A stretch of 64,000 bases of DNA, from positions 2,232,001 to 2,296,000 of the forward strand of contig NC_089434.1 of the NCBI RefSeq assembly GCF_026210795.1, given 5' to 3'. This DNA is from Rhizophagus irregularis (lineage: Eukaryota). Position 1 is the stretch's first letter. Every line of letters begins with the position of its first letter. A program made the translations under genes and the position numbers. The notes beneath the pieces were generated by a model. That model was not told where the DNA came from, ran no database searches, and was given only the letters and a program-made list of their open reading frames with translations. Of the stretch, positions 2,501 through 42,817 are shown one piece after another.

Positions 2501-3357
2501 AATAAAAAAAATTTTACTGTGGACGCTACCACCAATAGCATAAAGATACAGAGATTAGGTAGTTGGACTGCACTATGATAAATTAGTGTGTACAGTTAGG
2601 CCATACATTTCAACAAAGGATCATGGTGTCCTTCTAACGTTCCCTATGAGGTCATTGGGATGTTCAGAGTCCTGTTCATGAGGTCACTGCTTGTATACCT
2701 TGGGGGTAATTTCCTGTCCAGGTGGTCCAACTGAAATGATACAGGCAAAGTTAAATCAGCTAATTTAGATGGTTCTTATAGATGGTAAAATTCTAAGTGC
2801 AATAACTTTGTGGTAGTTTACCTTCTAATAGGTTTAGGTCAACTAGGATATTCCTGAACAGACAGGTGTACTAGGTGAGGTATGGGGTTCAACTCTCCAC
2901 TAGGCGGGTACCGGGTGGCAACTTGGGTGGTAGGGCATCACTAGGATTAATCTCAAACAAATGAGTCTGTACTATCTCATGTTCTCTCTGTCTCAATAGT
3001 TACTACTATACCATTGGGAGATTTATAACTGTACCTTGGGGCTAAGGAATTGTGGGGCTATAGTGGCCTTAAGTGAGCCTTAGTTTAGTTCTGAAGTGTG
3101 AATGTTAGTACAGAAGGGTTTCTAGATGATTACCATTACATCTGACACCAAAAGTCCTCCATTACTAAGACATGCCAAGGTGGCATATAAATTTGAGTTT
3201 GTCTTGCCTCTAGAATGGATAAAGGATGAGTAGGGAGTTATAGCTAGCCAGTTAGTATTTCGTTGATGGATAGGGACTATCCTGAGGTCAAACTAAAATG
3301 GCAGTTGTAGTAATATTTGGTCAGGTTGCACATACCAGTTGGTTGGTATACGTTAGT

Positions 3358-3391
3358 ACTAGTTAATGCTCTTATAAGAGCATTAACTAGT
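3358..3391. other. Perfect 34-bp terminal palindrome (left)
   Basis: actagttaatgctctta|taagagcattaactagt. Confidence 0.95.
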
Positions 3392-4733
3392 TGCGCTATA
3401 ATGTTATCTAGTTATGAGTATAATGTTTTCTAGTTATGAGTATAATGTTACCTAGTTACTGTTTTTAGTGTTCTGTGGTCTTATTATTGCTTTATTGCTA
3501 TCCACTTGATTTTATTGCTCTGTCCTCTTTTTATTTCCTTCTAACTATCCGCTTGTTTTCATTGCTCTGTGGCCTTTTTATTGCCAAGGTGCTAGGCCAG
3601 TATTGATTGCAAAAAATCATGTTGCAGTCGGGTGGCGTAGTAAATTTGCGGATCAGATTTTGGCTGGCATTATAGCATAATTTCTGGTCGATCTTTTGGG
3701 CATGTGATTTTAGGTTCCAGCTTGGTGACATGATAGTGCTATGGTAGTATCATGGAATCATCATGGAACTGGCAGGGAACTGGCAGGGAATCAGAGTGTT
3801 TCTATTAGTTTGCCAGTTTAAGATCACTTCTTGGATGCCGAGTTATTGTCCAAAGTTTTGGCCAAAATTATTGTTAATTTACTGCACAAAAAAAAACATG
3901 TGCGAGGTGCGTTCTCAGAACCTTCCCACCACTTCTCCGTCATATTCCCACTACTTTCAAGGTTCTGTCTGAAGGATCAGATGGTTGAAGAATCAGAAGT
4001 ACCAAGATCAGCCTATGTAGTAATTACCAGGAATTAGTGCTGAATTTACTTGAAATCCCACTTTTATGTTTCCATTTGATTGCCAGGTTGAGGCACGAAA
4101 TGCCGAACTTGCAATCCATATATTTTCCCTCTCAAATTGCCATTTCTTGAATGCCGGGGATGAGGCATATGCGAAGTGTTAGTGTTGTGCTCATTCTTGC
4201 AATTCTGCCTTGTATGACCTTTTTGATTGCCGAGTGAGGCACATGCGAAGTGTCGAATTAGTTCAGACTATATTGCTTTCATACCTTTTTTCGTATATTC
4301 TCCTGAGACTTTCTGCCTTCCCGACCCCCTTTCCTGCCTATCGGCGGTAGTACCCCAAGTTGTAATTTCTTATTTCTCTTTCCTATATATTATTCTAACT
4401 TGGGGTACTACCAATTTTATATTTTATTTTTCGCTTCTGCCTTTCTAGAACCCTTTCTCGTATAGTTACTACTCTGGGATACTTTAGGATACTACCACAT
4501 CGACCACTTTGGAGTACTACCACATCGATCATTTTGGGGTACTACCACATCATTTACTTTCTCTTGGCTTGGCGCTGGGTATTACCACTAACCCAGTATT
4601 TTACTAGCAAAGCATATTCGCTCAAAATTATATAAAATTTTTATTTTAAACTTTCCAAGTTTCTCTGTTATTTTATACTGCTTTCTTGCATATACACCAT
4701 GCTTCTTGCACAAAAAAAGCCCAGCCCTAGCCC
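3358..4733 (+). repeat. Left terminal inverted repeat
   Basis: Reverse complement of 42786-44151; differences are mostly transitions; internal short repeats (tagttatgagtataatgtt; tactaccacatcga). Confidence 0.95.
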
Positions 4734-5408: not shown

Positions 5409-6286
5409 ATGCAAGACGAAATTGACATTAAAGCTCTGGCATATGCCCAGAGGCATGAAGAAAGATGCTTAGCTTAAGTTAGTCCTAATACATACTTTAC
5501 TAAAAATGACCAATTTTTTGAAATATTTTTATAGACCTAGATACAATGGCTTTCAAAACAATTGTGCAATTATTTTGTAAAATTTTTAAAATATATCAAG
5601 ATATATTTAAGGTATTTTTGAGATTAAAATATTAAAATAATATTAAAGTTAATTATATTATAATAATAAAATAATAACAAAAACATTAAAAAATTATTGT
5701 GATATTATTTTGAGTTATTTTTATAGACCTAGATACAATACAATTACAAAATAATAGCAAAAATATAATAAAAACATTTTGATGTATTAAATGTATTTTT
5801 ATAGTATTTTAAAATTATTACAAAATCATTTCAAAAAATTGGCCATTTTTAGTAAAGCATTTATGGGTGTGTAAGAAAAATCATCAATGGGAGGCGCCAT
5901 ATAAAAATATGAAGCAAAGTTATAGGTGGTGTAATATTTGCCCTAATGTACCGAAAAGAACATGCCATTATATTTTCGAAGATTTATTAAATAAAAAATT
6001 TCCACTCTGAAAACCTAAATTCTTGGAGGGATTACATTTAGATGGATATAATGAAGAATTAGGCTTGGCCTTTGAATATAGTGGTAGCCAATATTACCAA
6101 ATTGTCCCTTTTTTTCACCCGTAAAGGCAGATGAATCTAGACGCACAAATCTGGCGTGATGAAAAGAGGGCGCTATGCTATAGGGAAGGAGTAATTCTTA
6201 TAACTATACCCTACTGCGTAGTAGACTTAGAAACTTTTATAAGGAGCACCTTATACGCATTTGGTTATCTCCTAATACCCACCTAA
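5409..6286 (+). pseudogene. Zn-ribbon + PD-(D/E)XK restriction-like endonuclease of giant-virus type
   Basis: Manual translation WVCKKNHQWEA..WCNIC..GLHLDGYNEELGLAFEYSGSQYY..LITIPY; three in-frame stops; MITE at 5495-5857. Confidence 0.7.
5495..5857. mobile_element. MITE inserted in the nuclease gene
   Basis: TIRs ctttactaaaaatgaccaattttttgaaat / atttcaaaaaattggccatttttagtaaag; TA left, CA right; removal restores the frame. Confidence 0.8.
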
Positions 6287-7444
6287 AAGGCAACATATGC
6301 TCTTCTTTAATATGCATTAATTGTTCTCTTACAAAGGGACGCTGAGGTCCTAAATCATCTAAATAATATAAAACAAGCATTGGAGGGTTTCTCCCAACAA
6401 CAATTCTCTGGATCTTATGCATACTGGGAGACCATATCGGATTTGTTATTCTGCGTTGTTCAAAAGGATCATTTTTCCATTCTTCAGGAGCGAGCAAAAA
6501 TCGGATAGTAGTACCCTTTGGTAGTTGTGGTTCATCAACACCTATTGGACGATTATATTTTACTGATAGTTTGGAATATATCTGCTCAAGTTTTGTGATG
6601 TCATTAGGACTCATCTCAATCAATCGAGTTGGACTATCATTCATATTATCAACAATTTTTCTTGCAAACCGCTCACATTCTCTACAGTGCTTGCCAGTAG
6701 GTAGGAGAAACTCTATTAAATACTGATTTTTAAAAACTCTATATTCAAATAATCCAGCATAATGATCGATCATTGCGAAACTTATATGCCTGAAACATGC
6801 TATAATTCTTTGGATCTCAACGCCATGTTCATCCATTAATAAAGTCACGTATCCCATAAACTCAGTACCCTTATCACATTGTATTTTTCGAGGCCAGTTA
6901 AAAGGTTTATCAGGATTATCATATATACTCTTAAATGCTTCCGCAACTTCCTCACTGCTCTTTAATGTTAAAAAACGAAATCTTTATATCTAGTCGCGTA
7001 GTCTATAACCAATAGTACATAGTAATATATTGGGCCATCATCTAGTAAATTTGTATCCACATCTTCATCATATGGTATTTCGATTAAATCACATTGGTGC
7101 ACAGTATTTGGCTTCGTAATTTTAGAGTAACTGGCATAAGGTATATGCTTTGGTGAAGGACGAAAAATTTGATACATTGTTTGATTCTCAAGCCATTTTT
7201 TTACATCAATAAATGGAAAGCTGTAGCCAGCTTTTTTACAAGTATCCCACAATCCCTTAACATTTTGATACAGACCTTCAGGACGATAATATAGTTTTTG
7301 CAAAGCAAAATGCCGGTCTAAATTATGAGCTTTTTGGGGATCGATATTAATTGTAGGTGTTTGTTTTGCTATGATTTGGTCTAACTCTCGCGCTTTTTGA
7401 GGATTGATATAAATAACCGGTCTTTCAGCTTGACGCTCTTCCAT
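6237..7444 (-). pseudogene. Retroviral-like (rve) DDE integrase, Maverick/Polinton type
   Basis: LQKLYY..VKKWLENQ..PNTVHQCDL..IDYATRY, then after a frameshift near 6968 KSSEEVAEAFKSIY..IQCDKGTEF..NDSPTRLIEMSP. Confidence 0.85.
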
Positions 7445-7493
7445 TCCAATTTTTATAATTACGAAAAAAAGCTAGCATCTATAAAGTCAGATT

Positions 7494-8324
7494 CTATTTA
7501 TTAGCTAAGGAGCTTTTTTCCTTACGCTTTTGCCTAGCTTCTATCTCCTTCTGCAGATTTAGTGGAGTGTCAAACCTTAGGCGGATTGCAAGGGGATCAT
7601 CTTCCGGCCTAGTGAGATCAAATACAATAAATTCACCTCTTCGAAGGTAGCTATTAATAACTATGGATGCATTTTTTACATCATCAGTATAACGACCAAC
7701 TATCTTGGACACATCTTGTTGGCTACCACCACCGTTATACATTACTAGGTGGGAGATATTCTCACGAATGAATGTAGGGACTTTATGGTATTTTTGGGTT
7801 ACATATATACTTGAAACATTTTAATGACGTCCATTCCCAAAAAATTGGCTAATTCGATTTTGTATATGTTTGGAAATTTGCATCAGATCCTCAAAAATAA
7901 TTAGTGTGCTTCTTTCAGGTGAGAATGCTCTTGTACTAGGAATTCTTTCAGGTGAAATGTACCTGAAACTAATATCCTCATAGAAAGGCGCTTTTGGATC
8001 CTTTGCAATCATATTATATATATACCTCACATATCCCCATTTTGGCTCATCAGGATAATACCCACAAACAATTAGATCATTACATTTAATGTAGCGAGAC
8101 CCACCTTCCTCCCCTTCTTGCACATATTCATCCTTATCACCTAGAACAAGGTTTCTAAGTAAATTAGTCTTACCTGAACCACTTTTTCCAGTGACCAACT
8201 TGCTGAAAGGCTATGTCATCGCCGGATGGCCAATATTTTGGGATGATTCATGCTTTGTGACTTCATCCATATCTAAAAGACGAAGTTTTATAGGAGGTAG
8301 TCCTATCTTTTGGTTCTTCTGCAT
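7494..8324 (-). pseudogene. A32/FtsK-like DNA packaging ATPase (Polinton/NCLDV type)
   Basis: Walker A GKSGSGKT, Walker B IIFEDL, GRH*NVSSIYVTQKYHKVPTFIREN; two in-frame stops. Confidence 0.85.
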
Positions 8325-8325
8325 A

Positions 8326-9209
8326 TCAGATTGGAAATGCATAATCTTGATTTCTATTTAAGGGTATTTTATAGTTCAGAATATTTTTTTCTTCATTGTA
8401 AGATGAATATAGATGAGAGAATACGCACCTTAAGATGTATATAATTAGTAATACTATTATGAAGATGATTGCATGCTGAAAAAATAAGGAATAAGGCGAT
8501 TCTGAGGTTATTTCAGGACTAGTGATTTCGTTACCTTTCTCCAGTCCTTTATCACCTCCAATCGCTTCATTTTGCTTAGATTCGCTGGATGTTTTTGAAA
8601 TATGCTCTAATAAAAGAGAATTAGTTTCTTGAAGAAGGGAATCTTTCTCTATCACTGCCTTTTGTGCTGAAAGTAAATCATCTCTCACTCGCATTAATTT
8701 ATCCTTTTTTTTGGCCAGTGTATCTTCTAACTCTGTATTTGCCAATTCTAAACTAATATTTTCGTCAGATAGTTTTATGTATTCCAGTTCAGATTTACGC
8801 TTAAGAAAATCCATCTCTGATAATCTCTTTTGTACCAAAGAAACATCCTGCTCTAATTCCTCTATTCTTGATTGGAGAGCTTGTATCTCTTTTAATTTTG
8901 TAGCGATCTCGCTCTTAGTACTTGCAAGAGAAATCTCTTTTTGATTAATCTCATTTTTGAATTCTCTTGCTTCATCTTTAAGCTGGCATACACGCTCTGA
9001 AAAACTCTCATTATTTTTTATCAAGAGACTATTTCTAGTGCCAAGCTGAATACTTGAGCTTAAAGCGATATCTAGATCATGTTTTAAACGTTAGTTCTCA
9101 AGCTCAGTTCGGCTAGATGGATAACGATTAAATGGCGAATCTCCAAGTTTATTGCCAGATACCAAGGGTGTCTTATTATTTATTTCATTTAGCGTATATT
9201 TATTTGCCA
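8326..9209 (-). pseudogene. Coiled-coil protein with C-terminal hydrophobic (TM) segment
   Basis: 232-aa ORF with heptads and IIFIIVLLIIYIL; probable upstream ATG near 9209 separated by stops. Confidence 0.5.
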
Positions 9210-9799: not shown

Positions 9800-12700
9800 T
9801 AGGGATTTTATTTAAGAAACTTTTAAATAGATTTTTTTGAGAAATTTTTTAAGAGTTTGTTTGGAAAAATTATTTTTTTAACTAAGAGGATCATTTAGAG
9901 CATTTTTGATAGAGAATTTTCTAAAGATTTGTTTGGAGAGATTATTTTTGAGAATTTTTTAACTAAAGGGACCGTTTGGAACATTTTTTGATAGAGAATT
10001 TTCTAAGAATTTGTTTGGGAAATGGTTTTTTGAGAATTTTTTTAACTAAAAGGATCATTTGGGCATTTTTTGATTGAGAATTTTCTAAGAGTTCGTTTAG
10101 GGAAATTATTTTTTGAATTTTTTAATTAAGGGGATCGTTTAGGGCATTTTTTGATTGAGAATTTTCTAAGAGTTCGTTTAGAGAGATTATTTTTGAGAAT
10201 TTTTTAACCAAAGGGACCGTTGGAACATTTTTTGATAGAAAATTTTTTTGATAGAGAATTTTCTAAGAGTTTGTTTGGAAAAATTATTTTTTGAGAATTT
10301 TTTAACTGAAGGTATCATTTGATAGAGAAATTTCTAAGAGTTCGTTTAGGAAAATTATTTTTTGTATTTTTTAATTAAGGAGATCGCTTAAGACATTTTT
10401 GATAAAGAATTTTCTAAGAATTTGTTTGGGAAATAGGTTTTCAAGAATTTTTTAACTAAAAGGATCATTTAGGGCATTTTTTGATTGAGAATTTTCTAAG
10501 AGTTTGTTCAGGGAAATTATTTTTTGAATTTTTTAATTAAGGGGATTGTTTAGAACATTTTTTGATTGAGAATTTTCTAAGAGTTCGTTTAGGGAAATTA
10601 TTTTTTGAATTTTTTAATTAAGGGGATCGTTTAGGGCATTTTTTGATTGAGAATTTTCTGAGTTCGTTTAGGGAAATTATTTTTTGAATTTTTTAATTAA
10701 GGGGATCGTTTAGGGCATTTTTTGATTGAGAATTTTCTAAGAGTTCATTTAAGGAGATTATTTTTGAGAATTTTTTAACCAAAGGGACCATTGGAACATT
10801 TTTTAATAGAGAATTTTTTTGATAGAGGATTTTCTAAGAGTTTGTTTGGAAAAATTATTTTTTGAGAATTTTTTAACTGAAGGTATCATTTGATAGAGAA
10901 ATTTCTAAAAGTTCATTTAGGAAAATTATTTTTTGTATTTTTTAATTAAAGGGATCGCTTAGGGCATTTTTGATAAAGAATTTTCTAATGATTTGTTTGG
11001 AGAGATTGTTTTTGAGAATTTTTTAACTAAAATGAATGTTTGGAACATTTTTGATAGAGAATTTTCTAAGAATTCGTTTAGAAAATGGTTTTTCGAGAAT
11101 TTTTTAACTAAAAGGATTATTTAGGGCATTTTTTGATTGAGAATTTTCTAAGAGTTCGTTTAGGGAAATTATTTTTTGAATTTTTTAATTAAGGAGATCG
11201 TTTAGGGCATTTTTTGATTGAGAATTTTCTAAGAGTTCGTTTAGGGAAATTATTTTTTGTATTTTTTAATTAAGGGGATTGTTTAGTGCATTTTTTGATA
11301 GAGAATTTTCTAAGGATTCATTTGGAGAGATTATTTTTGAGAATTTTTTAACCAAGAGATCGTTTGGAACATTTTTTGATAGAGAATTTTTTAAGAGTTT
11401 GTTTGGGAAATGGTTTTTTGAGAATTTTTTAACTTAAAGGATCATTTAGAGCATTTTTGATTGAGAATTTTCTAAGAATTCGTTTAGGGAAGTTATTTTT
11501 TGTATTTTTTAATTAAGGGGATCGCTTAGAGTATTTTTGATAGAGAATTTTCTAATGATTCGTTTGGAGAGATTGTTTTTGAGAATTTTTTAACTAAAGG
11601 GAACACTTGGAACATTTTTGATAGAGAATTTTCTAAGAATTTGTTTGGGAAATAGTAGGACCCCAGATATCTCCAAAACAGGTCATAAGTCACACTTTCG
11701 GCAGATTGGCCCATTTTTCAGGGGCGCAAAAAATCATTTTTTGTAAATATCTCGGCATCCAGTGGTCCAATTTTGATGAACTTTTTTTTAAATTGTAGAG
11801 CTAAATGAGGGCTACAAAATAAAAAAAAAGTTCATTAAAATTGAATTACTGGATGCTGAGATATTTACAAAAAACGATTTTTTGAGTTTCAGCAAAAAGG
11901 GGTGTTTTTGGCCAAAAGTCCATTATGACCTTTATATTAGATATCCGGGGTCCTGAAATAGTTTTTCGAGAATTTTTTAACTAAAAGGATCATTTAGGGC
12001 ATTTTTGATAGAGAATTTTCTAAGAGTTCGTTTGGGGAAATTATTTTTTGTATTTTTTAATTAAGGGGATCACTTAGGGCATTTTTGATAGAGAATTTTC
12101 TAATGATTCGTTTGAAGAGATTGTTTTTGAGAATTTTTTAACTAAAAGGAACGTTTGGAACATTTTTGATAGAGAATTTTCTAAGAATTTGTTTGGGAAA
12201 TGGTTTTTTGAGAATTTTTTAACCAAAAGGATCATTTAAGGCATTTTTGATTGAGAATTTTCTAAGAGTTCGTTTAGGGAAATTATTTTTTGTATTTTTT
12301 AATTAAGGGGATCGCTTAGGGCATTTTTGATAGAGAATTTTCTAATGATTCGTTTGGAGAGATTGTTTTTGAGAATTTTTTAATTAAAGGGAACACTTGG
12401 AACATTTTTGATAGAGAATTTTTAAGAATTTGTTTGGAAATGGTTTTCGAGAATTTTTTAGCGAAAGAATCATTTAGGGCATTTTTGATAGAGAATTTTC
12501 TAAGAGTTTGTTTGGGGAAATTATTTTTTGTATTTTTTAATTAAGGGGATCACTTAGGGCATTTTTGATAGAGAATTTTCTAATGATTCGTTTAAAGAGA
12601 TTGTTTTTGAGAATTTTTTAATTAAAGGGAACGTTTGGAACATTTTTGATAGAGAATTTTCTAAGAATTTATTTGGGAAATGGTTTTTCAAGAATTTTTT

Positions 12701-15700
12701 AACTAAAAGGATCATTTAGGGCATTTTTGATTGAGAATTTTCTAAGAGTTCGTTTAGGGAAATTATTTTTTGTATTTTTTAATTAAGGGGATCGCTTAGG
12801 CATTTTGATGAGAGAATTTTCTAATGATTCGTTTGGAGAGATTATTTTTGAGAATTTTTTAACTAAAGGGAACGTTTGGAACATTTTTGATAGAGAATTT
12901 CTAAGAATTTGTTTGGGAAATGGTTTTTCGAGAATTTTTTAACTAAAAGAATCATTTAGAGCATTTTTGATAGAGAATTTTCTAAGAGTTCGTTTGGGGA
13001 AATTATTTTTTGTATTTTTTAATTAAGGGGATCACTTAGAGCATTTTTGATAGAGAATTTTCTAATGATTTGTTTGAAGAGATTGTTTTTGAGAATTTTT
13101 TAACTAAAGGGAACGTTTGGAACATTTTTGATAGAGAATTTTCTAAGAATTTATTTGGGAACTGGTTTTTTGAGAATTTTTTAACTAAAAGGATCATTTA
13201 AGGCATTTTTGATTGAGAATTTTCTAAGGATTCGTTTGGAGAGATTATTTTTGAGAATTTTTTTAACTAAAGGGAACGTTTGGAACATTTTTGATAGAGA
13301 ATTTTCTAAGAATTTGTTTGGGAAATGGTTTTTTGAGAATTTTTTAACTAAAAGAATCATTTAGGGCATTTTTGATTGAGAATTTTCTAAGAGTTCGTTT
13401 AGGGAAATTATTTTTTGTATTTTTTAATTAAGGGGATTGCTTAGGGCATTTTTGATAGAGAATTTTCTAATGATTCGTTTGGAGAGATTATTTTTGAGAA
13501 TTTTTTAACTAAAGGGAACGTTTGGAACATTTTTGATAGAGAATTTTCTAAGAATTTGTTTGGAAAATGGTTTTTCGAGAATTTTTTAACTAAAAGAATC
13601 ATTTAGAGCATTTTTGATAGAGAATTTTCTAAGAGTTCGTTTGGGGAAATTATTTTTTGTATTTTTTAATTAAGGGGATCACTTAGGGCATTTTTGATAG
13701 AGAATTTTCTAATGATTCGTTTGAAGAGATTGTTTTTGAGAATTTTTTAACTAAAGGGAACGTTTGGAACATTTTTGATAGAGAATTTTCTAAGAATTTA
13801 TTTGGGAAATGGTTTTTTTGAGAATTTTTTAACTAAAAGGATCATTTAGGGCATTTTTGATTGAGAATTTTCTAAGGATTCGTTTGGAGAGATTATTTTT
13901 GAGAATTTTTTAACTAAAGGGAACGTTTGGAACATTTTTGATAGAGAATTTTCTAAGAATTTGTTTGGGAAATGGTTTTTTGAGAATTTTTTAACTAAAA
14001 GAATCATTTAGGGCATTTTTGATTGAGAATTTTCTAAGAGTTCGTTTAGGGAAATTATTTTTTGTATTTTTTAATTAAGGGGATTGCTTAGGGCATTTTT
14101 GATAGAGAATTTTCTAATGATTCGTTTGGAGAGATTATTTTTGAGAATTTTTTAACTAAAGGGAACGTTTGGAACATTTTTGATAGAGAATTTTCTAAGA
14201 ATTTGTTTGGAAAATGGTTTTTCGAGAATTTTTTAACTAAAAGAATCATTTAGAGCATTTTTGATAGAGAATTTTCTAAGAGTTCGTTTGGGGAAATTAT
14301 TTTTTGTATTTTTTAATTAAAGGGATCACTTAGGGCATTTTTGATAGAGAATTTTCTAATAATTCGTTTGAAGAGATTGTTTTTGAGAATTTTTTAACTA
14401 AAGGGAACGTTTGGAACATTTTTGATAGAGAATTTTCTAAGAATTTATTTGGGAAATGGTTTTTTGAGAATTTTTTAACTAAAAGGATCATTTAGGGCAT
14501 TTTTGATTGAGAATTTTCTAAGGATTCGTTTGGAGAGATTATTTTTGAGAATTTTTTAACTAAAGGGAATGTTTGGAACATTTTTGATAGAGAATTTTCT
14601 AAGAATTTGTTTGGGAAATAGTTTTTTGAGAATTTTTTAACTAAAAGAATTATTTAGGGCATTTTTGATTGAGAATTTTCTAAGAGTTCGTTTAGGGAAA
14701 TTATTTTTTGTATTTTTTAATTAAGGGGATCGCTTAGGGCATTTTTGATAGAGAATTTTCTAATGATTCGTTTGGAGAGATTGTTTTTGAGAATTTTTTA
14801 ACTAAAGGGAACGTTTGGAACATTTTTGATAGAGAATTTACTAAGAATTTGTTTGGGAAATGGTTTTTCAAGAATTTTTTAACTAAAAGGATCATTTAGG
14901 GCATTTTTGATAGAGAATTTTCTAAGAGTTCGTTTAGGGAAATTATTTTTTGTATTTTTTAATTAAGGGGATCATTTAGGGCATTTTTGATAGAGAATTT
15001 TCTAATGATTCGTTTGGAGAGATTGTTTTTGAGAATTTTTTAATTAAAGGGAACATTTGGAACATTTTTGATAGAGAATTTTCTAAGAATTTATTTGGGA
15101 AATGGTTTTTCAAGAATTTTTTAACTAAAAGGATCATTTAGGGCATTTTTGATAGAGAATTTTCTAAGAGTTCGTTTGGAGAGATTATTTTTGAAAATTT
15201 TTTAACTAAAGGGAATGTTTGGAACATTTTTGATAGAGAATTTTCTAAGAATTTGTTTGGGAAATGGTTTTTCGAGAATTTTTTAACTAAAAGAATCATT
15301 TAGGGCATTTTTGATAAAGAATTTTCTAAGGATTCATTTGGGGAGATTATTTTGAGAATTTTTTAACCAAGGGATCGTTTGAAACATTTTTGATAGAGAA
15401 TTTTCTAAGAGTTCGTTTGGGGAGATTATTTTTAAGAATTTTTTAACCAAAGGGATCGTTTGGGACATTTTTTGACAGAAAATTTCTAGGAGTTCATTTG
15501 GGGAAATTATTTTTTGGGATTTTTTTAACTAAAGGGATCATTTAGGACATTTTATTTTTAATAAAGAAATTCTAAGAATTCATTTGGAAGATTTTTTGAG
15601 ATTTTTTTAATAAATCTTCTAAGGGTTCATTTGAAGAAATTTTTTAAAAAAGTTTTTTAACTAGAGGGGTTATTTCAAATATTTTTTTGATGAGAAATTT

Positions 15701-15770
15701 TCTAAGAGTTCATTTGGAAAGATTTTTTTTTGATAATTTTTAATCGAAGGGGTCATTTGGATTGAGAAAT
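9800..15770. repeat. ~80-bp satellite array with ~240-bp three-variant higher-order repeat
   Basis: Recurrent gagaattttctaaga..tttagggaaattatttttt units cycling through three variants; ends degenerate. Confidence 0.9.
11656..11955. mobile_element. 300-bp MITE inserted in the satellite
   Basis: TIRs aggaccccagatatct / agatatccggggtcct; aaatag duplicated at 11650-11655 and 11956-11961. Confidence 0.85.
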
Positions 15771-16695
15771 TTTTGTTTTTCAACGTAATTTTACCAAATT
15801 TAATTATAAATGTATTCAGGCTATAAAATAACATGTGGTAAGTTACGTTACGTAATATTGTTATCATGTGATCACATAATTTAAATATTTACATTTCGCA
15901 TTTTTGTTTATCTTATTAAAACCTTTTCTTCGTTCTCAATTTTTTTTTACTTAAAAACACAATTTTTTATCTATTTAATATATCCAGAAATACATATTTT
16001 TATATTTTTTTTTGTTTGTTATATCTAGAAATGCATAAAAAGGTATATATTACTAATATTTCTTTTCTTTATTAATGTTTTTCTACCATTTTTTTTTCGT
16101 TTCTTTCTTTTCTTTTACTAATACTCCTACTAATATATTTTTTATTATTTTTTTCTACTATATTAACATTTTTACTATTTAATATTTTCTATTAATATTA
16201 TATTACTACTGATATACGTTCTCTTTCTACTAACATTTTTTATTCTACTAACTTTTTCTTTCTGCTAATGTTTCTACTAATATTTTCTATATTTATATAT
16301 CTATACTAATATTTTTTAATAACATTCTCTTTTCTCTTACTAATATATTTATCATTAATGCTTCTTTTAAATAATCAAACAGGTATAAGCAAACAAGTGA
16401 TTTTATTTTTATGCTACTTTTAGTAGAAGTTATATATTATATATATTTATTCAAGTATTCAAGTATAATTAGTATAATTGTTTTTTTTTAATTAAAAAGT
16501 GTAAATAAATTTAAATTGTAATAAAGTTTTGAATTAAAATTAAAAAAATATATAAATTATGATTGCATTTTATAATTTTTTTGCCTGAAATAACAAACCA
16601 ATGCCAGACTAATGCCAGACCAATGTCAGACCAATATAAAATAAATTTTCTACAAGTTTTTTATTAGTATTATACAGATTTATTACTAGCAAACT

Positions 16696-17342: not shown

Positions 17343-20300
17343 TTACGCACTTTTTTTTAAGTTCTCTTCACTATTTGGGCTAGAGGAGTTGGTAGATGTT
17401 TGGTCCTGATCTTCTTTTAGCGGATCCTTGACTACCGAAGCCTTGCTAAAAGTTAGGATAATATATACCTTTCCATGTAACTTTATGCGAAACTGGTTTT
17501 TATTTAGATCGGGAACGCCTTGAACTTTTCGAATGTTTGACATATCAAAAAATAGCATTGGTTCTGTTTCACCATTATCAATACGAACAAAATTTCCAAT
17601 AACTGTGACCGTCTTATCTTCTTTATCCTTCAAAGTAACTGGCACGTCTGTATACCATCCTAATGAATCGGTGATATGCTTGGAATTGCCCTTTATAGCA
17701 AAATTAGATGGTTTATCAGCCTTCCATCCAAGCGCCTTGATTGCTGGGTCATTTATACCACTGACCGAACTCACTGGCAGTATCTAAAAAAGATTTGGAA
17801 ATAATTAAATCATTTATATTAGCATTCAGATATTGTAAAGATGACAACCACTCATCTGATTCTTTCGATTCCTCCTCCTGAGCCTTTCGAGACAAGCACA
17901 TTTTTCATATCGGTGGTGAGAGCTTGGACAATAGCTGATCGTACATTTCAGGTTGGCTAGATTCTAGGGGTGAGATTGCATTAGTATCACTGGTCAACTT
18001 ATCATTTACCTGTTTTTTTTTTCTGATGCATAATACCACCCATTTTCTACTTTGTCATAACCATCTTCCTCATTATCTGAATCTGGAGGCGTATATTGGG
18101 GCTGTGTAGATAGAAGTTGAAGATAGTAATATTGAGTAAAATTGGATTTAGCTACAGGATTTAATCTTGGGCAATTGTTTTTCTTATGCCCTTCCTGTCC
18201 ACAATTACTGCAATAAAAAGGCTTTCGAGATTGATCATTAAGTGATATCCTACCAAACTTAGATGTCATTTGACCAATTTCATCTATTTTTGATTCTAAT
18301 CTATCGATTCTAGATGATTGCAACTTTTCTGGCTTTTGCGGTTTAGGAGGTAGTCCATAAGCTTTTACGACCACTCTCATTATTTCTTCCCTAGTAAGTG
18401 TATCAGGGAAAGAATTAGCGCTTTCATATGTATCAAGAAGCTGTTCCATATTTTTATGAGGAACTGGTGGAGGTATCTTTTTAGTTTACTAGACCATTTG
18501 TGATTGGAAATCGGCTTTTTGTTTTTCTAATAAAGACTGGTATTCAGTTTTTTGCTGTGCTAGTGCATTCTGGATTGCTTTTTGCATATCTTCGAAAGAT
18601 ATTCCATGCTGTTGTGAGGCTGAAACAGGTGAAAGTTCATATATTTGCCGAGATGTTTGATTAGATACTAACAGATCAGATGTTCTATCGCTTTTATGTC
18701 TAGCTATTCGGCGTAATTCTATCTCATAAAGCTTTTTAGCTAATTCATCTAATGGCAAATGTTCACCAATATCTTCAGCTTTTTTAAGCAATAAAAGTGG
18801 TAAAGCATCTAAGAACTTTCTACGTAATTCTTCAGGTCTATAGTTGGCTCGTCTATCTATTCATAATATTTTTCTATATAATTCATCTATAGTCATGTCT
18901 CCCTTTCTAATTGTTCTATACATGAAATCCCAAAGTTCCTCTTCTACTGTAAGGAAATGAGTTTTTAGCCACCATACGGCTTGACCAAATCAAATACCAG
19001 CTATAACTACTGTATTTCCAGCATTAGCATTTGGTGCATTTACAGGAGCATTAGTAGGACGGCCACCTGCTATATGCCAGTCTTCATTCTAAGCATCTTC
19101 TACAGCTCTTAATTTGAATATTGCATTTCCTGGTTGGCCAACAGCCTCATTTAATGCATTAGCTCCTATCTGTACTGCAGTTCATCCATTTACTGCAACT
19201 AAGTTAGCCTGCCCTGTATTATCGAGTAAGTTAGTTAGCTCCCAATTCTGCTTTGTAGTAATCTCATCATCAAACCATTCTAAAGTCCTTCCTCTCATAA
19301 CGGCTTTTAAATGTCCTATTGCATTATTTCTTCCTGTTGGAGGACTTGCTGCATTATCATTTGGATCTATTCCCTGATTCTGCAAGTCTAGTCTAAGTTG
19401 TGCAAGAAAGTCTGGGATACTATCATCCCAGTCAAAATATGAATAAGGTATTCCTGCCATGTTTACTTGATTAGGTAGATTATTCTGAAGTGCCAAAATT
19501 TGTTCCTGCAAATTTAAATTATTCTGTCGCTCTGCTTGGGTCTTATTTTTCCATTTCTCGTATCGCTCATAGAGCCTATCACAATTAAATTCTAACAGAC
19601 CTATATTCCCTCTACTTCGCTGTAAGTGATGGGCATTTTGCTGATATAGCAATTGTAAGGCAAATTTTTCCTGTAGCAATATACCAATACAGATTCGCTT
19701 TCCTGTTATATTGTCTAACATTCTATTTACTTGATTTCGAGCATTGGTCCGCAACTGATAAAGGTCAGCAATAACCATTTGTTCCACTCCTTTAGCATTT
19801 TGCCTTCATATAATTTCATTATCATGCTCAGCCTCTACATCATATCGCCTTTGTTGCTCACGGACTAAATCCTAATGCAAATTATTCTCTTTTCAGCAAA
19901 TCTGCCTTGTCGCCCTTTTTATTTGATCAGCCAAGATTTCTCTACCTATTGTTGTATTATTCAGATAACCATCTATAGCATTTGCTAGCTCTGTGATGAT
20001 AGCCATTTCTAAGTTAATATTAGGATTATACAAGTCTAAAGAATTCCCTTGTTCTGGCAAATTTTTTTGTGATGAAATGGTTCTGATCCGACATCGCAAT
20101 TTCTCTACCTGTTCCTCAGAATTTACTAACTGATTTTCTATACTAGAAATATGTTTTTCATTATCACAAATATCCTTCTTAGCTTGATATAGTTGCTTTT
20201 AATTTCAGACTGGAGATTTCAGATTTTAACTCTACTATCTTTTCTTTCGAAGCATTTTCAAGGCGCTCTATCTCCCTATTGAGATCTTGAATTTTTTGCT

Positions 20301-24560: not shown

Positions 24561-25101
24561 TTTGTTAGAGATTAGCTGAGGATTAGGTGAGGTTCGACTT
24601 ATATATTAATCTTGAGTCTAAGCCACAAAAACTGACACATGCATCACACACGGATCACGTGCCGGTCGGTCACCTCAAAAATTGGATTACTGCTCGCACT
24701 AAATAATAAAGGGAGCACTGAAATTTGCTAGGGGAAGTAAATGAAATGTAGATACGCGGAATCCTAGGCAATTTAACGCGAGTCTCAGTATCAAGTTATT
24801 TCTTAACTCTCTTTTGACGCTTAATTTTTTCATTACAAACCAGATATGGGCAAATTATTTCTCATTGATAAGCGAATGCAAAATTTATATTTGAGAACGT
24901 ATATACAAATAAAACACACCCGTTTAAAAAATTAGAAGCGAAATCTTTATTATATTTTTTTCGTAATGTAAGTAATACATGAGAAAAGGCCGGCCGGCTA
25001 TGTAAAAAAAAATGAAACTAATAAAAGATATTGGAGTAGCAGGTTGTTTCAAGGGAGGAATTTGCCGAGCCCCAACTCATATAATGGCAGTTCCTTTCCC
25101 G

Positions 25102-30195: not shown

Positions 30196-33100
30196 CACAG
30201 GTCGAAGGGGCACCATTGTCCAAAATTCAAAAAATGCAAATTCCACATTTTTCTGGAAAATGGTGGGAAATTGTGGAAAATGCTGCATTACACTGAGCAA
30301 TTTTTTGGAATAACATTGTTACAATATTGTCCGATTTAGCAAATTTTATGAAAATTTGGGAAAATGCTACATTATATCTCAAATGTAACATTTTGTAACA
30401 TTTCGTAACATTGTTATAACATTGTCATTGAAATCAAATTTTGCTTTTTTTTTGTCAAATGTTCCAATTTTCTTGCAAATGGTGCATTTTTATGAAAATT
30501 CCACATTTTACCTCAAATGTAATAACATTTCATAAAATTGTTATAACATTTCAAATTTTGCTTTTTTTTGTCAAATGTTCCAATTTTCTTGCAAATGGTG
30601 CATTTTTATGAAAATGCCATATTTTATCTTCAATGTGATGTCATTGTAACAACATTTCATAAAATTGTTATAACATTGTCAATTAAAATCAAATTTTGTC
30701 AAATATTCCAATTTTCTGGCAAATGGTGCATTTTTTATGAAAATTCTATATTTTTTTGTCAAATGTTGCATATTTTCAGTAAATTTTACATTTTTTTGGT
30801 CAAATATTTCATTTTCGTCAGAATGTTAAAATATTACAATTTTTTTTTTGGAAAATGCTCAATAATATAGCATTACACTGAAAAATGTAGTATTTCACCA
30901 AATTACACTAAAAAGTATCACAATTATCACATTTTTTGGAAAATTCCACATTACATTAAATTATACTGAAAAATGTGGCACTATACTAAATTATGTGGAA
31001 TTGCACTAAAAAATACTACAATTACACTAGACAATGTAGCATTACACTAAAAAAGTACCACAATTATCATATTTTTTAGAAAATTTCACGTTATACTGGA
31101 AAATGTAACATTATGCTAGAAAATGCGGAATTGCACTAAAAAATGCGGAATTGCGCTAAAAAACACAAAAAAAATACTACAATTACACTGGATAACGTAG
31201 CATTACACTTAATTACATTAAAAATTGTTATGATAATTTTTATTTATTTGTAAAATTACGGACATTATTAAATTTATAATATTTATATTCTAACGCATTA
31301 TTTAACATTAAACACATTGTTAATATTAACAATGTATCAACACGATGCATGTGTTGTGTTGTTGTTTAATTTAATACTAAACCTTACTACTGAAGACTTC
31401 CTCTTTTTGTCACTATAAACAGGCGGAGGGAGCAGCAATGGCTCTCCCCCTATAGGTACTTTATGGCCTCTACCTATTTATAGAGGAGGGGCTTTTCGTA
31501 AAGTTATTAGATAGATATATATATATGTATATATATAAATATATATATACATCTATCATAATTAAATTAAAATTATAAAAAAAAAAAAATAATAATTTTG
31601 GGGAAAAAGTCCCTATTTATATAAAATTATGTATCACGCATATCACGTGATATTACTTAATAATTACCGCAGCTTTAGCTGCGGTATAGCGAAAAAAAAT
31701 TAAGCTTTTTTTAGTAAAAAGCTTAATTTTTTCTCACGATCTTTCAATTTCAACTTCTTTTTCTCCCCTTTCCCATTTCGTTTCCCTCCTTTCCCTCTTT
31801 CGTTCTCCTTTTTCCCATTTCATTTTCCCCTTTTCCATTTCGTTTCCCCTCTTTCCTTCTTTCGTTCTCCCCTTTCCCTTTTCTCCCTTCTCTTTTCGTT
31901 CTCTCTCCGCACTTTTCCCTTCCCTCTTTTTCTCCCTTCCCCTTCCTTTTTCCCTTTTTCCCTTCCCGGAATCGTCTTTCAGTAAAAACGAAATGGTAAG
32001 TTTTGAAGCGAAATGCTTCGAAACTTTTTTAAAATTTTTTTTTTGATTTTTTGTTGTAAGGAAACGTTTCTAACATTTCCTTTCTTTTTTAGGACTTTCG
32101 ACCTCGGAATTTGTAAACGGTTAGTTTCGAAGTTTTTCAAAACTTTTTTTTGTTTTTTAGGAAACTTTTCTAACGTTTCCTGTATTTTCTTTTTTTTGTA
32201 GGTCTTTCGGCTTGTTTCGTTCAATTCGGAATATTGAAATCGGTAAGTTTTGAGGTATTCGCCTCAAAACTTTTTTAAAAAAATTTTTTCTTTTTTTAGG
32301 AAACATTACTAATGTTTCCAATAATTTCTTTTTTTATAGGTCTTTTTGGCGTACTTGACTTAGGAAAATGAAATGGTAAGTTTTGAGGCGTTCGCCTTGA
32401 AACTTTTTTTTCTAAAATTCTTTTTAGGAAACATACTGACGTTCCCTTTCTTTTTTTTTGTAGAATTTCGGCGTTTTGACTTTGGGAAACGGGGAATGAA
32501 ATGATGGTAAGTTTCAAAGCGTTTTGCTTCGAAACTTTTAAAATAAATTTTTTTTTTTGCTTGTTATAAGGAACGTTTTTAACGATCCTTTATTTTTTTT
32601 GTGTAGGTCTTTCAGTATACTTCTTTGGGACTCGAAATGGTAAGTTTCGAAGCGTATGCTTTGAAACTTTTAAACAATTTTTTTTAATATTTTAGGAAAC
32701 ATTAACTAACATTTCTTTATTTTACTTTTTGTAGGTTCTGGATGTTAGAATGGTGGAAACGACCGGTAAGTTTCGCAATGTTGCATTGCGAAACTTATTT
32801 TTTTAATTTTTTTTTTAAAGAAACAATACTAACGTACGTTTCTTTTACTTTTTATAGGTTAAACACTGAAGCTATGAGGGAAATTTATAAGGAATTATGT
32901 AAGAAATGTTTTACGTGTTTCTTCTGACTTATCAGGGCAAGGGAAAACTGAATGGATTAAAGAGAATAGTTTCAGTAAAGGGAAATTTATACACAGCTTT
33001 TTAATAAGTGATGGTACCGGACGTTTGAATAATGGAAATCAAAACGAACCAGTAAGTTTCGCAACATTGTGTTGCGAAACTTAATTTTTTATTTTTTTTT

Positions 33101-35245
33101 ATTAAAAGAAATATTAACTAACGTTTCTTTTTTACTTTTTGTAGGTTCCAGACGTTAGAATGATGGAAACGAACTGGTAAGTTTCGCAATGTTACATTGC
33201 GAAACTTAATTTTATTAAATTTTTTTTTTTAAGAAACGTTAGCTAACGTTTCTTTTTTTTTTAGGAACGCCGGACAAAATTACGACCCGGACTTTAGGTG
33301 AAAGGTAAGTTTTTCATTTTTTTTTTGTATTTATTTATTAAATAACTTTTTTTTTACGAAACGTTAATTAACGTTTCAGTTTTTTTTATAGATCACGGCT
33401 TTGCTTCAAGGACAAGATTTCAAAGGTATTACCTTTGAAATCAATTTTATTTTTTTTTTGTTTAACGAAACGTTAGTAAACGTTTACTAGCGTTTCATTT
33501 ATCTTCTTTTTTTAGTTCATTTTCCGGTCACCTTCTAGAAGAATTTTGAAGGTAAATATAAGAACCTTCAAAATTCTTTCATTTTTTATTTTTTTTTTAT
33601 TACAATGAAACGTTTACTAACGTTTCGGTTTTCACTTTTTAGGTTCCAGGGCACCATTTCAACATTTCGAAGGTATTAGAACTTCAAAATTATTGGATTT
33701 TTGTTATGTAATGAAACGTTATTTAAAGTTTTGTTTATTTTTTGTTTTTTTTGTAGGTTAAAGGAATGGAAAAAATGAAAAGGAACGGGGGAAAACGAAA
33801 GGGGAAAAGGAAAACGAAAGGTAAAGGTAAAGACGAAAGGGGAAAGAGAAGATGAAAGAATTTGAAAAAGAAAATGAAAAGGGAAAGAGAAAGGGAAAAA
33901 CGAAATGGAGCGGGAACAAAATGAACATTTCGAAGGTATACTTCAAAATGTTTTTTTTATTTTGATTTTTTTCAATGAAACGTTTCTAACATTTTTTTTT
34001 CTTTTTTTTTTGTAGGTTTTCACTGGCTTCTATTTCGGCACTGGACATTTGATACATAAATAAATTAGAGGTGTGGATTATCCATGAATGGAACATCAGA
34101 TATCTAATGAATATAGACCAATATAGATTCTCATCGCTAAATAATAATTGTGTATTTTTTAATAAATAATATAATAAATTATAAATTATGTAAAATTATT
34201 AAATCAGTGTTTTAAATTGTCACAGCATTTACACTAAATTGTTTAAAATTATTACTAAATTTCACTCAATTGTCCAAAATTATTGCAAAATTATCTCCGT
34301 AAATGTTGCATTTATACCGTTTACACTCAATTGTCCAAAATCGGTAAAATATTTTCACTTAATTGTCTGAAATTATCCTAAATTCCACTAAATTATTCAA
34401 AAATTTAGCTAACATTTACCGAAAAAATGCAAAATTCACCACAATTTGCATTACATTTGCATAACATTGCCGAAAAAGTCACCTAAATTTTCAACAATTT
34501 ACATAACATTACTAAAAATATATTACAATTTACCACAATTTGCATTACGTTTGCATAAAATTACTAAAAATTTACTTAAATTCACCACAATTTGCATTAC
34601 GTTTACATAACATTACTAAAAATTTGACTAAATTCACCACAATTTGCACTTCGTTTACATAACATTACTAAAAATTTAACTAAATTTCACTACAATTTGC
34701 ATTACGTTTGCATAAAATTACTAAAAATTTAACTAAATTCACCACAATTTGCATTACGTTTACATAACATTACTAAAAATTTAACTAAATTCACCACAAT
34801 TTGCACTTCGTTTACATAACATTACTAAAAATTTAACTAAATTCACCACAATTTGCATTACGTTTGCATAAAATTACTAAAAATTTAACTAAATTCACCA
34901 CAATTTTCATTACGTTTGCATAAAATTACTAAAAATTTACCTAAAATTCACCTCAATTTACATTACGTTTGCATAAAATTACTAAAAATTCAACTAAATT
35001 CATCACAATTTGCAAAGATTTGCCTAAAATTTCCCACAATTTAATGATAATTTACTGAAAAATTTCTCAACATTTGAATTAGGAATTCTGTAGGAATTCT
35101 GCCATTTTGACAAAATTTGCCAAATTGTAAGTCCTCCATTATCCCAAAATTGTAACACAATTTACTCCAATTTACCGGGATAATTCTCAATTTGCCAGAA
35201 AAATTCCAGGCAAATTTTGCGACAATGACATCTGTTCGACCTGTG
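30196..35245. mobile_element. Non-autonomous CACTA/CMC-like DNA transposon, copy 1
   Basis: TIR cacaggtcgaa / ttcgacctgtg; 3-bp TSD TGG; subterminal repeats; related copy at 47474-52663. Confidence 0.9.
34430..35030. repeat. 52-bp subterminal tandem repeat
   Basis: aaattcaccacaatttgcattacgtttacataacattactaaaaatttgact units; also at ~51940-52450. Confidence 0.85.
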
Positions 35246-35580: not shown

Positions 35581-36033
35581 CTAATTATCTTTGCTTAGTA
35601 CCTCCGGCACCCTTTCAGCGGGAGGGTATACGATAACATTGATTCCCTTTTCACCACCAAAGATACGTTGGGGTTGTATAGGAAAATGAGTAAAAATGGT
35701 GTCTTGCAGTTCCATTCTTATTGCACCTTTTACTTCAAATTCACTGATGTTTCTTAAGCTATTGATTATAACACTATCAGCTATAAATGCAACCCTATAT
35801 AAAGCCAAATTGGTCGAATCTATATCTTGAAATTGATCTAGACGACGAGTTCTGATTGCCTCTGCGAGAGAAGAGACTCTATTGTTGTTAGCATTAGATA
35901 TCGTTACTTTAAAAATATCATTCACTCCCTTGTCAAAAATGAGACAGTTGAGAGTAATATCCCCACCAGCGAGAAACTTGTTAAGCTTGTCAGGAGTCTT
36001 AGTTTTATTAGATTCCTTGGTCTTATCGGACAT
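35581..36033 (-). CDS. Crinkler N-terminal (ubiquitin-like) domain protein
   Basis: ITLNCLI..IFKVTI..VSSLAEAI..LALYRV (LFLAK-like) ..INVIVYPP (HVLVxxP-like); upstream exons possible. Confidence 0.7.
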   Translation of the reverse strand: MSDKTKESNKTKTPDKLNKFLAGGDITLNCLIFDKGVNDIFKVTISNANNNRVSSLAEAIRTRRLDQFQDIDSTNLALYRVAFIADSVIINSLRNISEFEVKGAIRMELQDTIFTHFPIQPQRIFGGEKGINVIVYPPAERVPEVLSKDN

Positions 36034-36769
36034 CTTGCTTTCCTAAATACAAGGTCCATAGTGAGAAAACTCGCTCCTATACATACATAACTTCTAGCAT
36101 ATACATACCTTATTTTGCGTTATTTTACGGGAAAGTTTTTTGCGGAAAGTTGGCTGAACTTCCACATACCCCTACATGCTTTATATCTTGCTGGGAAAAA
36201 GAGCGCCAAGCCGAAGTTAAGGAAGTATGAGGCGTAATTAGTATTGTTGTCTGATGCCAAGAGTCCTTTGAAAGCACATGCAAATGGAATCTTCATACCT
36301 TTTCACATGGAGATCTACCAGAGATAAAGATATTAGCCTTAATTATTTTTTAAAAAATTTTGAATTACGGCTATAAGATTTTTATAGCCTTAATTAATTA
36401 CAGCATATAAAAATTTTGTATTACGACACTTTTTTGAATTACGGCTAACATCTTTAACCGGAGAGACGCAAAGGTAGTTAGTTCTTGTAGATCTCGAAAT
36501 TTCAAAGTCCTCAGCCTTTCATAACATATGCTTTTGTCGTCACTATTAACTTATAGGGTAGGTACTGTGTTGCATGTAGACCTCCTTTCAAGCGAAGCGC
36601 CTATGAAGCAGGCCATTTTTCTCATGTTTGTTCAGGGAAAAATAGAGGTACTAGTTAGCATACATAACTCAGTATGTAAAGAAATAATGTTTTACAAACT
36701 GACCGTGTGATTGGCCATTACATCATTGCACAGAAATCTATGGCTCAGCAAATTCTTCCGAGCTGAAGA

Positions 36770-37852: not shown

Positions 37853-39079
37853 TTAATAACTATACATATTGATAATTTCAGATATTTCATCATTTTCTGT
37901 AGACTCCGATTTTAGGTCTGAGTTATGCTCATCTTCAGGTCCGGAGTCTTCTAATTCTGTATCGCCTATAGTATAATTATCACCTGCATCAAGACGGTCA
38001 GATTCTTGCCTCATTGCGATTCTCAAAAGCAATTTAAGATGTTGGGGGGTTGGATTTTTGCCACCATGAACTCTGGAAGCATGTTTAAATCCATAATCTC
38101 TTAAATTTTTAGGTATGGTTCTATAAGGTTCTTGCTTCAAGAATTCATTAAATGGCCAAGCACTACGTGTCCCACTTTCAGTAAAGACAGGGTCAGATAA
38201 CTTTTTAGCCTTAATTGTATCTTGAATCCAGGTAAGCAATTCTCTTGCGCGTTCTGGATTCTTTTCCATAGAAAGAAGTGGACAAGGGATTCTTCCATCT
38301 GCCTTCTTATATCCTGTACAATACCAAGAATATCCCTCTTTATACCATGCTGGAATATTCGAAAGATCAATCCCAAGTAGTTCATCTGGCTCATAGTGCT
38401 TAATTTGAAGAGATGTTACTTCTGAAGGTCTTATACTCAACATCACTATCACATCTGCAAGATCCTCTCTAGTAGGAATTTTACTAACATCCATATTTTG
38501 GATCCTCTTTTGCACATTTGCTAAGGAGAAATGTATGGGAATTCTATCTGGATTAGCCATTCGCTTCTTAGTTCGCTTTTTTTGAATTTTGTTAGAGTCT
38601 TGAATAAGTTCCTTATCTTTGGCAAATGCTTCAATAATTGCAGGATCTACACCGCCTTCTGCTAACTTCACACGGAATGTTGACTGACGTGAAACACCGG
38701 CAACGATTTCCTTTTCATTTTTATTTTTCGGACTCACTGCCCAATGATTAGCGATAATGTTAACAAAATCACCGGCCTTAGCACAATATTCTGCCCTTCC
38801 TTCTATAGTGAGGTTTTTCTTTCTCTTATCTGGTAGGAGAGCCTCTATTTTCTCTTTACTAAATGAATGTTTAGGTTTAGCAAGAGCTACCTTAACACAT
38901 CTACGGGCCATCCAATCTGGAAGTAAAGCATCTAGTTCGGGAGCATGTTCGCTCAATTGTTCTGGAATGGAGCTAGCCGACAAATTACATTTTTCCAGGA
39001 ACTGCTCTAAGATGCTGACATAGTTATTAGTTTTAGGTTTTCGAGTCTTTAGAGCGGTTGCTTTAGTAGCCATGTACAT
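37853..39079 (-). CDS. Tyrosine-recombinase-fold protein, protelomerase (telomere resolvase)-like
   Basis: Uninterrupted 408 aa; ordered motifs SIRPSEV (R), CTGYKK (K), PKNLRDYG (R), AMRQ (His position), DNY (Y). Confidence 0.65.
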   Translation of the reverse strand: MYMATKATALKTRKPKTNNYVSILEQFLEKCNLSASSIPEQLSEHAPELDALLPDWMARRCVKVALAKPKHSFSKEKIEALLPDKRKKNLTIEGRAEYCAKAGDFVNIIANHWAVSPKNKNEKEIVAGVSRQSTFRVKLAEGGVDPAIIEAFAKDKELIQDSNKIQKKRTKKRMANPDRIPIHFSLANVQKRIQNMDVSKIPTREDLADVIVMLSIRPSEVTSLQIKHYEPDELLGIDLSNIPAWYKEGYSWYCTGYKKADGRIPCPLLSMEKNPERARELLTWIQDTIKAKKLSDPVFTESGTRSAWPFNEFLKQEPYRTIPKNLRDYGFKHASRVHGGKNPTPQHLKLLLRIAMRQESDRLDAGDNYTIGDTELEDSGPEDEHNSDLKSESTENDEISEIINMYSY

Positions 39080-42500: not shown

Positions 42501-42817
42501 GCATCAATATCCAGAACCAGACAGAGAGGCAGATTCCCATCAATGCACTCGTGAGTATCAGGAATCCCATAAATTTCAGATGGATGATCAACTATCGTAA
42601 AACCCTTTTCTGACACTCGAACTATATATTTTGAATAAATCTCTTCAGGATGATAGGCTTCTAGAAGAGAAATATCATTTTTATTATTGGACAAATATTG
42701 AAAATACACATGATCATTGTAACCAGGCTCAAAATCAAGGTCGGCTAAACCAGAGAAGAGCCTGGTTGCATCATTTATTGTTTTAGGGCTAGAGCTGCGG
42801 TTTTTTTGCGCAAGCAT
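39560..42817 (-). pseudogene. AEP/PrimPol primase fused to a Zn finger and UL9-like (origin-binding) SF2 helicase
   Basis: VLDID, KCSWH, IDLGLY (AEP motifs); CPIC..H..C; IRSPLRTWKT, VQVESL, ILDE, AQMLY*IRD; stop at 40691, collinear fragments to ~39560; ATG lies inside the right TIR. Confidence 0.85.

Follow-up and report, generated by a model that had tools for sequence, protein, structure and literature searches.

The window analyzed here, a stretch of 64,000 nucleotides of Rhizophagus irregularis DNA, contains a 40.8-kb element (3358-44151) that ends on both sides in a perfect 34-bp palindrome. We propose, with a probability of roughly 0.7, that this is a Polinton-like replicon of Glomeromycota with hairpin telomeres of the N15 type. 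The palindromes would be its telomere resolution sites, and the element would have been integrated through them; both its free hairpin form and the activities of its enzymes are what we infer. Several features are seen directly: the palindromes lie flush with a 5-bp duplication, related elements have the same 34-bp length and edge, substitutions in the two arms are mirror images, and the element carries the set of genes described below. A first-pass annotation of this DNA had read the ends as unfolded hairpin telomeres. That reading is supported by covariation of the arms across 15 ends and by a predicted telomere resolvase encoded in the element. A replicon with a resolvase and a palindrome at each end would most simply be linear DNA capped by hairpins and replicated by way of palindromic junctions, and such a form would explain the mirror-image changes without further assumptions.

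In Polinton-type elements, a protein-primed polymerase is thought to solve the end-replication problem. If our proposal is true, this element solves the problem by bacterial-style hairpin telomeres, and yet its integration is retrovirus-like. It would further assign a role to a family of proteins that occurs across mycorrhizal fungi and lacks annotation. The telomere resolvases would gain a fungal branch, and the integrase implied would be one able to act on hairpin or junction DNA. The central claim lends itself to a direct in vitro test, as both the predicted enzyme and its 34-bp substrate are in hand.

Palindromic ends of the element

The left palindrome (3358-3391, axis at 3374/3375) is of the T10/A25 form and the right one (44118-44151) of the C10/G25 form. 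Each is identical to its own reverse complement, and the two 34-mers differ at positions 10 and 25 only. The 5-bp direct repeat TTAGT is present directly outside both, at 3353-3357 and 44152-44156. Thus, the palindromic ends, the symmetric double substitution and the junction of a full palindrome with the target-site duplication, all described in the first-pass annotation, were each found as described. Both palindromes are likely sites of telomere resolution, a function predicted for them here.

Eight perfect palindromes of at least 18 bp occur in the window. The two 34-mers are the longest, followed by one of 24 bp, and inside the element there is no further perfect palindrome above 24 bp. 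When folded as DNA, none of 200 shuffled sequences matched either 34-mer (z about -8.8), and the stem energies of the two palindromes are -13.7 and -14.9 kcal/mol. The right palindrome reaches 36 bp (44117-44152) because the target duplication starts with T.

The palindromes form the outermost parts of terminal inverted repeats of about 1.35 kb, located at 3358-4733 (plus strand) and 42786-44151 (minus strand). These repeats are 95-96% identical (95% over 1376 columns), and 48 of the 54 substitutions between them are transitions. Three 22-bp subterminal direct repeats (3397-3458, plus strand) adjoin the left palindrome; their number varies among related ends, and they are likely protein-binding sites.

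In each of the four public runs compared, contigs carry both the 0-difference and the 2-difference version of the end, and therefore the difference at 10/25 is not an assembly error of the window. Contig depths in run X3 are about 260 for both ends, like those of other single ends, which suggests one element of the exact window subfamily in that run. Public-run contigs break at the palindrome, with no strand-change joints, and are uninformative either way on fold-back forms.

The empty target, reconstructed from 3345-3357 and 44152-44170, is a 12-bp palindrome (TTAGTTAACTAA) resembling the element's own end. The left flank of the element is a high-copy repeat, and no such palindromic target is present at other ends. 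We also considered the inverted repeat at 570-2406 and 60792-61713 as the boundary of an outer element and rejected it, as it represents two copies of a small repeat. These are two MITE-like elements in inverted orientation, each about 920 bp long and bounded by short terminal inverted repeats; the left copy is split by about 900 bp, and a further end is located near 44232-44250.

Covariation of the palindrome arms

To collect related ends, metagenome contigs were scanned once with a pattern in which positions 6-13 and 22-29 were free and 4/31 and 14/21 could each take two states. The other 14 positions were fixed as derived from the window and public-run ends, and the pattern misses ends changed at these positions as well as other families. 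The scan yielded 86 stretches, or 88 loci with two viral ones. Fourteen were ends of related elements, 13 of them independent (L060 was excluded as the same insertion as L038, and L006, which has just 6 inner bases, and L017, which has 14, were retained). The remaining 74 of the 88 loci had no similarity to the window's repeat and were set aside as unrelated. In viral contigs, there were no matches to the window's palindrome, and the two loci given by the loose pattern were both unrelated.

Together with the window's own two ends, the set comprises 15 ends, with the same palindrome in 7 and a perfect palindrome in 11. All 15 stop exactly at the palindrome edge and continue into unrelated flanks, except that the outer edge of L074 is cut off by the contig end. 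No two metagenome ends share a 5-bp duplication, and the length of the duplication is thus that seen in the window only.

Compared with the commonest form, mirror-image changes are found at 6 of the 10 variable pairs (4/31, 6/29, 9/26, 10/25, 11/24 and 14/21); the change at 6/29 is a transversion (A>T with T>A). As anticipated in the first-pass annotation, the arms do not vary independently across the 15 ends, and symmetric changes are in excess. Six pairs changed on both sides were not reached in any of 500 shuffles, a control that ignores relatedness, and slid controls gave none. A stricter simulation of two-sided changes gave P values from 8e-5 to 1.7e-3. It was run without the window's own pair, with pair 4 counted once, with no requirement for the complementary base and with C/G sites weighted up to tenfold. 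Pairs 4, 6 and 11 are symmetric at both window ends, which suggests that these changes were inherited through the mobile form.

One-sided changes are limited to five, distributed among 4 of the 13 metagenome ends. All are C>T or G>A, as would result from decay once the element had inserted. In L074, 11 nt are inserted on the inner side, and the five outer bases available before the contig end mirror this insertion; the mirror reaches the contig end and could be an assembler artefact. As a source of symmetric arms in general, such an artefact was judged unlikely, since the arms are shorter than assembler words and one-sided variants do appear.

Additional variants were observed in the public runs. 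Loose ends at 3353, 3369 and 3372 show that these runs contain other subfamilies. In one such end, the outer arm has undergone three one-sided A>T changes, which are unexplained and perhaps represent a short inversion; another, more distant end has 10 differences in 58 bases. In one of the four runs, an end has C>T at position 14. Among the metagenome contigs, L058 carries such a palindromic end together with the same helicase gene as the window's element (75% amino acid identity). The flank at L040:1338-1656 resembles window positions 24753-25053 (71%), a sequence likeness suggesting that one element may have inserted into another. An unrelated 44-bp perfect palindrome, also centered on TTATAA and with no similarity to the window, is present in two metagenome contigs (L004/L070:388-431).

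The window's own difference at 10/25 deserves separate treatment. The first-pass annotation named two independent CpG deaminations as an alternative, and the changed pair is indeed on CpG, the right end having CG/CG and the left end TG/CA. The C10/G25 form of the right end is the state common to most relatives. The difference is weak evidence, both because it is on CpG and because two independent deaminations strike one end in mirror image and spare the other in 4-5% of cases (probability 0.04-0.05). We somewhat favor a single CpG deamination copied through a hairpin. A slightly less probable course of events is that both deaminations occurred in the left end after insertion, which would concern the window's difference only and leave the family hairpin-ended. 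Deamination-type changes at 16 of 38 CpG sites in the terminal inverted repeats fit the latter course, as do one-sided C>T changes at pair 10 in 2 of the 13 relatives and the CpG methylation reported for transposons in Rhizophagus (PMC8647823). On the other hand, there is no further change among the 68 palindrome bases, and if even 10-20% of the divergence between the repeats arose before insertion, a single event with copying is 1.2 to 3 times likelier. The share assigned to one event spans 0 to 1 depending on this fraction (0.54 at 10%, 0.76 at 20%), and the broken genes suggest that most repeat decay came after insertion.

Gene content and the predicted telomere resolvase

An open frame at 37853-39079 (minus strand) encodes a 408-aa protein that we predict, on the basis of its structure model, to be a telomere resolvase (protelomerase). 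Its candidate residues are R217, K259, R327, Q358 and Y369. In an 84-row alignment, R217 is conserved in 77 rows, K259 in 72, R327 in 69 and Y369 in 62; the remainder are mostly gaps. Position 358 is Q in the window's subfamily in place of the catalytic H; it is H in most relatives (49 of 84 rows) and Q in 18.

By sequence, the 408-aa protein has no match in Pfam, PHROGs or PDB, and none to PF16684. Profile comparison with nine protelomerases by hhalign was not significant (E 0.16-0.21, probability below 1%), with the R, K and R residues in register. A viral fold library gave weak matches only, in which the EhV86 telomere resolvase ranked second (E 0.076). A tblastn search of phages with a compact resolvase relative found nothing under E 3, and no resolvase or helicase relatives were retained from viral contigs.

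The structure of the product of 37964-39079 was modeled with an alignment of 84 sequences that included distant relatives (pLDDT 88). This model superseded an earlier one built from 68 close sequences (pLDDT 65), for which the only TelA row was at rank 38 with Z 4.7. With the new model, Foldseek placed TelA at ranks 1-3 (E 4e-3 to 1.6e-2) and Cre at rank 4 (2.1e-2), with no match below 0.001. In VIA-align, Z reached at least 8 in 7 of 870 chains, which were six TelA structures and the ResT catalytic domain, whereas integrases, Xer and Cre scored 5.7 at most. The TelA alignments (Z 9.4-9.7) covered 237-249 residues over both domains at a high rmsd of 8.6-10.4, and that of the ResT catalytic domain (Z 9.1) covered 135 residues at an rmsd of 3.5. 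The model has N-terminal helices at 19-175 and a helical linker; its residues 87-365 align with TelA 127-401 at an rmsd of about 9. Model residue 365 pairs with TelA 401, and four residues on, Y369 lies opposite Y405, the TelA nucleophile (PMC3558466). In the ESM Atlas, 18 of 30 matches were ResT-TelK_cat clusters at 0.95, the only named family among these matches. The spacing of the motifs is similar to that in protelomerases: the R-to-H and H-to-Y distances are 29-31 and 10-12 in 94 family members, 33 and 9 in seven phage protelomerases, and 28 and 11 in TelA (PMC3558466).

The resolvase family comprises 133 database matches. All named ones belong to Glomeromycota and come from Rhizophagus, Glomus, Gigaspora, Dentiscutata, Cetraspora, Diversispora, Entrophospora, Ambispora, Acaulospora and Geosiphon. 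The resolvase gene and palindromic ends are seen together in the window's element only, the related contigs being too short. P0244, P0248 and P0254 are distant, compact members with the full R-K-R-H-Y set, and their hosts may be outside Glomeromycota.

Two pieces in different frames at 6237-7471 (minus strand) are predicted to represent an rve-like (DDE) integrase. This assignment draws on ESM Atlas features, in which the frames score 0.92-0.95 to clusters where 32-39% of the members carry PF00665 (rve); the frames have no Pfam or PDB sequence match, and a search for longer relatives gave two fusions that were uninformative. An A32-type packaging ATPase with two in-frame stops is located at 7494-8330 (minus strand), and its frame, with X at one stop, matches Pox_A32 with E 4.8e-13. 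A replication protein gene, broken near its 3' end, occupies 39719-42880 (minus strand) and has a UL9-like origin-binding helicase domain (Herpes_ori_bp, E 7e-15; phrog_4913, E 4e-11). We take its N-terminal part, on the strength of motifs and with no Pfam match, to be a likely primase-polymerase.

The scan for genes covered frames of at least 55 aa outside repeats in this decayed element. Among the 65 frames, Pfam showed no match to a protein-primed polymerase B; no capsid gene was recognized by Pfam or PHROGs among the frames scanned, and no protease gene of the Polinton kind was found.

Several segments appear to be cargo or later additions. Broken frames with a zinc knuckle at 17343-19805 (minus strand; zf-CCHC, E 1.7e-4), which we assume to be gag/protease-like, are either cargo or a nested insertion. 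An 81-bp tandem array of about 6 kb (9810-16000, approximate limits) has a strong GC skew and is likely a later insertion. A host repeat at 30196-35245 is likely nested as well; its second copy, of about 80% identity, is located outside the element at 47474-52663. This 5-kb unit is repeat-rich and contains 52-bp tandem repeats and small palindromes of 20-24 bp. Nested repeats account for about 11 kb of the element. The frame at 35581-36042 encodes an N-terminal domain of the Crinkler type (E 1.6e-11).

Proposed cycle, alternatives and known systems

TelA converts a palindromic junction to hairpins by cuts placed 6 bp apart (PMC3558466). By analogy, the resolvase would make a closed hairpin of each palindrome of the element, giving a linear free form. 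This form would be replicated from an internal origin by the helicase/primase, giving a head-to-head dimer with palindromes at the junctions. The resolvase, itself predicted from structure, would then place its two cuts 6 bp from each other about the central TTATAA and, as does TelA, seal the hairpins. In a hairpin, the two arms would form one duplex, such that any change would be copied into both. Integration by a DDE enzyme requires a 3'-OH, and the predicted DDE integrase would free one 17 nt past the apex, either by nicking a hairpin or by cutting an unresolved junction 17 bp beyond its axis; both reactions leave the same ends. Strand transfer to target sites staggered by 5 bp would follow, after which repair would unfold the full palindrome. 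After integration, the arms would be parts of separate duplexes and decay singly, producing one-sided C>T and G>A changes.

An extension of this scheme, which we regard as rather unlikely, is that the resolvase also excises the element. Cutting of both chromosomal sites would free a hairpin-capped linear genome, and the host ends would be fused or repaired. Such a reaction follows from that of TelA (PMC3558466), and the geometry is suitable, with one complete site on each side of the element. If the host half-sites fused, however, a single palindrome flanked by direct repeats would be left behind, and the scan could detect it; among 13 loci with at least 14 inner bases, none was without an inverted repeat, and this counts mildly against clean rejoining.

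Matching arms could arise without hairpin telomeres if the palindrome were the symmetric site of a dimeric protein (the tyrosine-recombinase-fold protein as a dimer resolvase, or the integrase), with the arms matched by selection and a circle as the free form. We consider this improbable. Sites of the lox/dif type are 34 bp in size, as is the palindrome, and Cre and Xer were matched by fold too, but telomere resolvases score clearly above these recombinases and are the sole named family in the Atlas matches. Recombinase sites have an asymmetric spacer, whereas the center of the palindrome is fully symmetric. Constraint on the site is suggested by a difference between ends of 8% in the palindrome versus 20% in the next 150 nt (11 ends), a contrast inflated by the search pattern. 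Yet selection would require one-sided intermediates in active lineages, and the mirrored insertion in L074 would be hard to reach in this way.

Even less probable, in our estimate, is that arms are matched within the chromosome by repair of cruciforms or lagging-strand hairpins or by template switching, with no hairpin-ended free form. The stability of the stems is in its favor. This process would also account for a 10/25 change that occurred after insertion, when most divergence seems to have accumulated (the ATPase, integrase and helicase frames are broken). However, four of the 13 ends retain one-sided changes, and therefore such repair is inefficient; it also leaves unexplained the resolvase gene and the presence, at every end, of palindromes of equal length flush with the target. 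Hairpin telomeres used as integration ends are our preferred interpretation.

In its proposed mode of action, the element is like bacterial hairpin replicons. N15-type prophages and the hairpin telomeres of Agrobacterium and Borrelia (TelN, TelK, TelA and ResT) share with the window's element a palindromic site and a resolvase-fold enzyme with R-K-R-H-Y residues, although sequence similarity to the window's resolvase is not significant. The N15 type also has a primase/helicase-type replication gene, and in phiHAP-1, repA is located beside the protelomerase gene. N15-type prophages stay unintegrated. Their packaged form has one site, whereas the window's element has two full sites that are its integration ends and are flanked by the target duplication.

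Phaeoviruses (EsV-1 and Ectocarpus endogenous viruses) are eukaryotic, integrate and encode a telomere resolvase, and fold-back reads have been reported at their palindromic site (PMC13236599). These giant viruses have an internal telomere site, and it is in circular form that a tyrosine recombinase integrates them at CC dinucleotides (PMC13236599). In contrast, the window's element has its sites at the ends, is bounded by long inverted repeats and a 5-bp duplication, and encodes a predicted rve-like integrase; it is not of the phaeovirus type. The punuiviruses of Chlamydomonas, also giant, have large terminal inverted repeats and target duplications for which a DDE integrase is thought responsible (PMC13236599). 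Unlike for the window's element, a hairpin telomere or resolvase is not mentioned for them in the summary given by that source.

An expansion of Polinton/Maverick elements has been reported for Glomerales, and A32 genes of fungi have been noted as fragmentary (PMC11952901, 10.64898/2026.06.19.733378, PMC8647823); the portions available of these three sources make no mention of telomeres or palindromes of such elements. Full-text literature searches, which reached few subscription journals, brought up no description of a Polinton-like or mycorrhizal element with a telomere resolvase or palindromic hairpin ends. We see about an even chance that such elements constitute an undescribed class of fungal elements or viruses across Glomeromycota, characterized by N15-like hairpin linear DNA, telomeres that are the substrate of the integrase, and excision in one reaction.

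Like Polintons/Mavericks, the window's element measures tens of kb, has long terminal inverted repeats with a short duplication of the target, encodes an A32 ATPase and a predicted rve-like integrase, and has relatives in Glomeromycota. It differs from them in that polymerase B, capsid and protease were not found among the frames scanned and in the presence of an origin-binding helicase, a predicted telomere resolvase and palindromic ends. Thus, it is built like a Polinton-like element and, with no polymerase B recognized, we do not class it as a Polinton/Maverick proper. The usual Polinton has a 6-bp duplication and AG...CT ends, whereas the duplication here is 5 bp and the ends are AC...GT.
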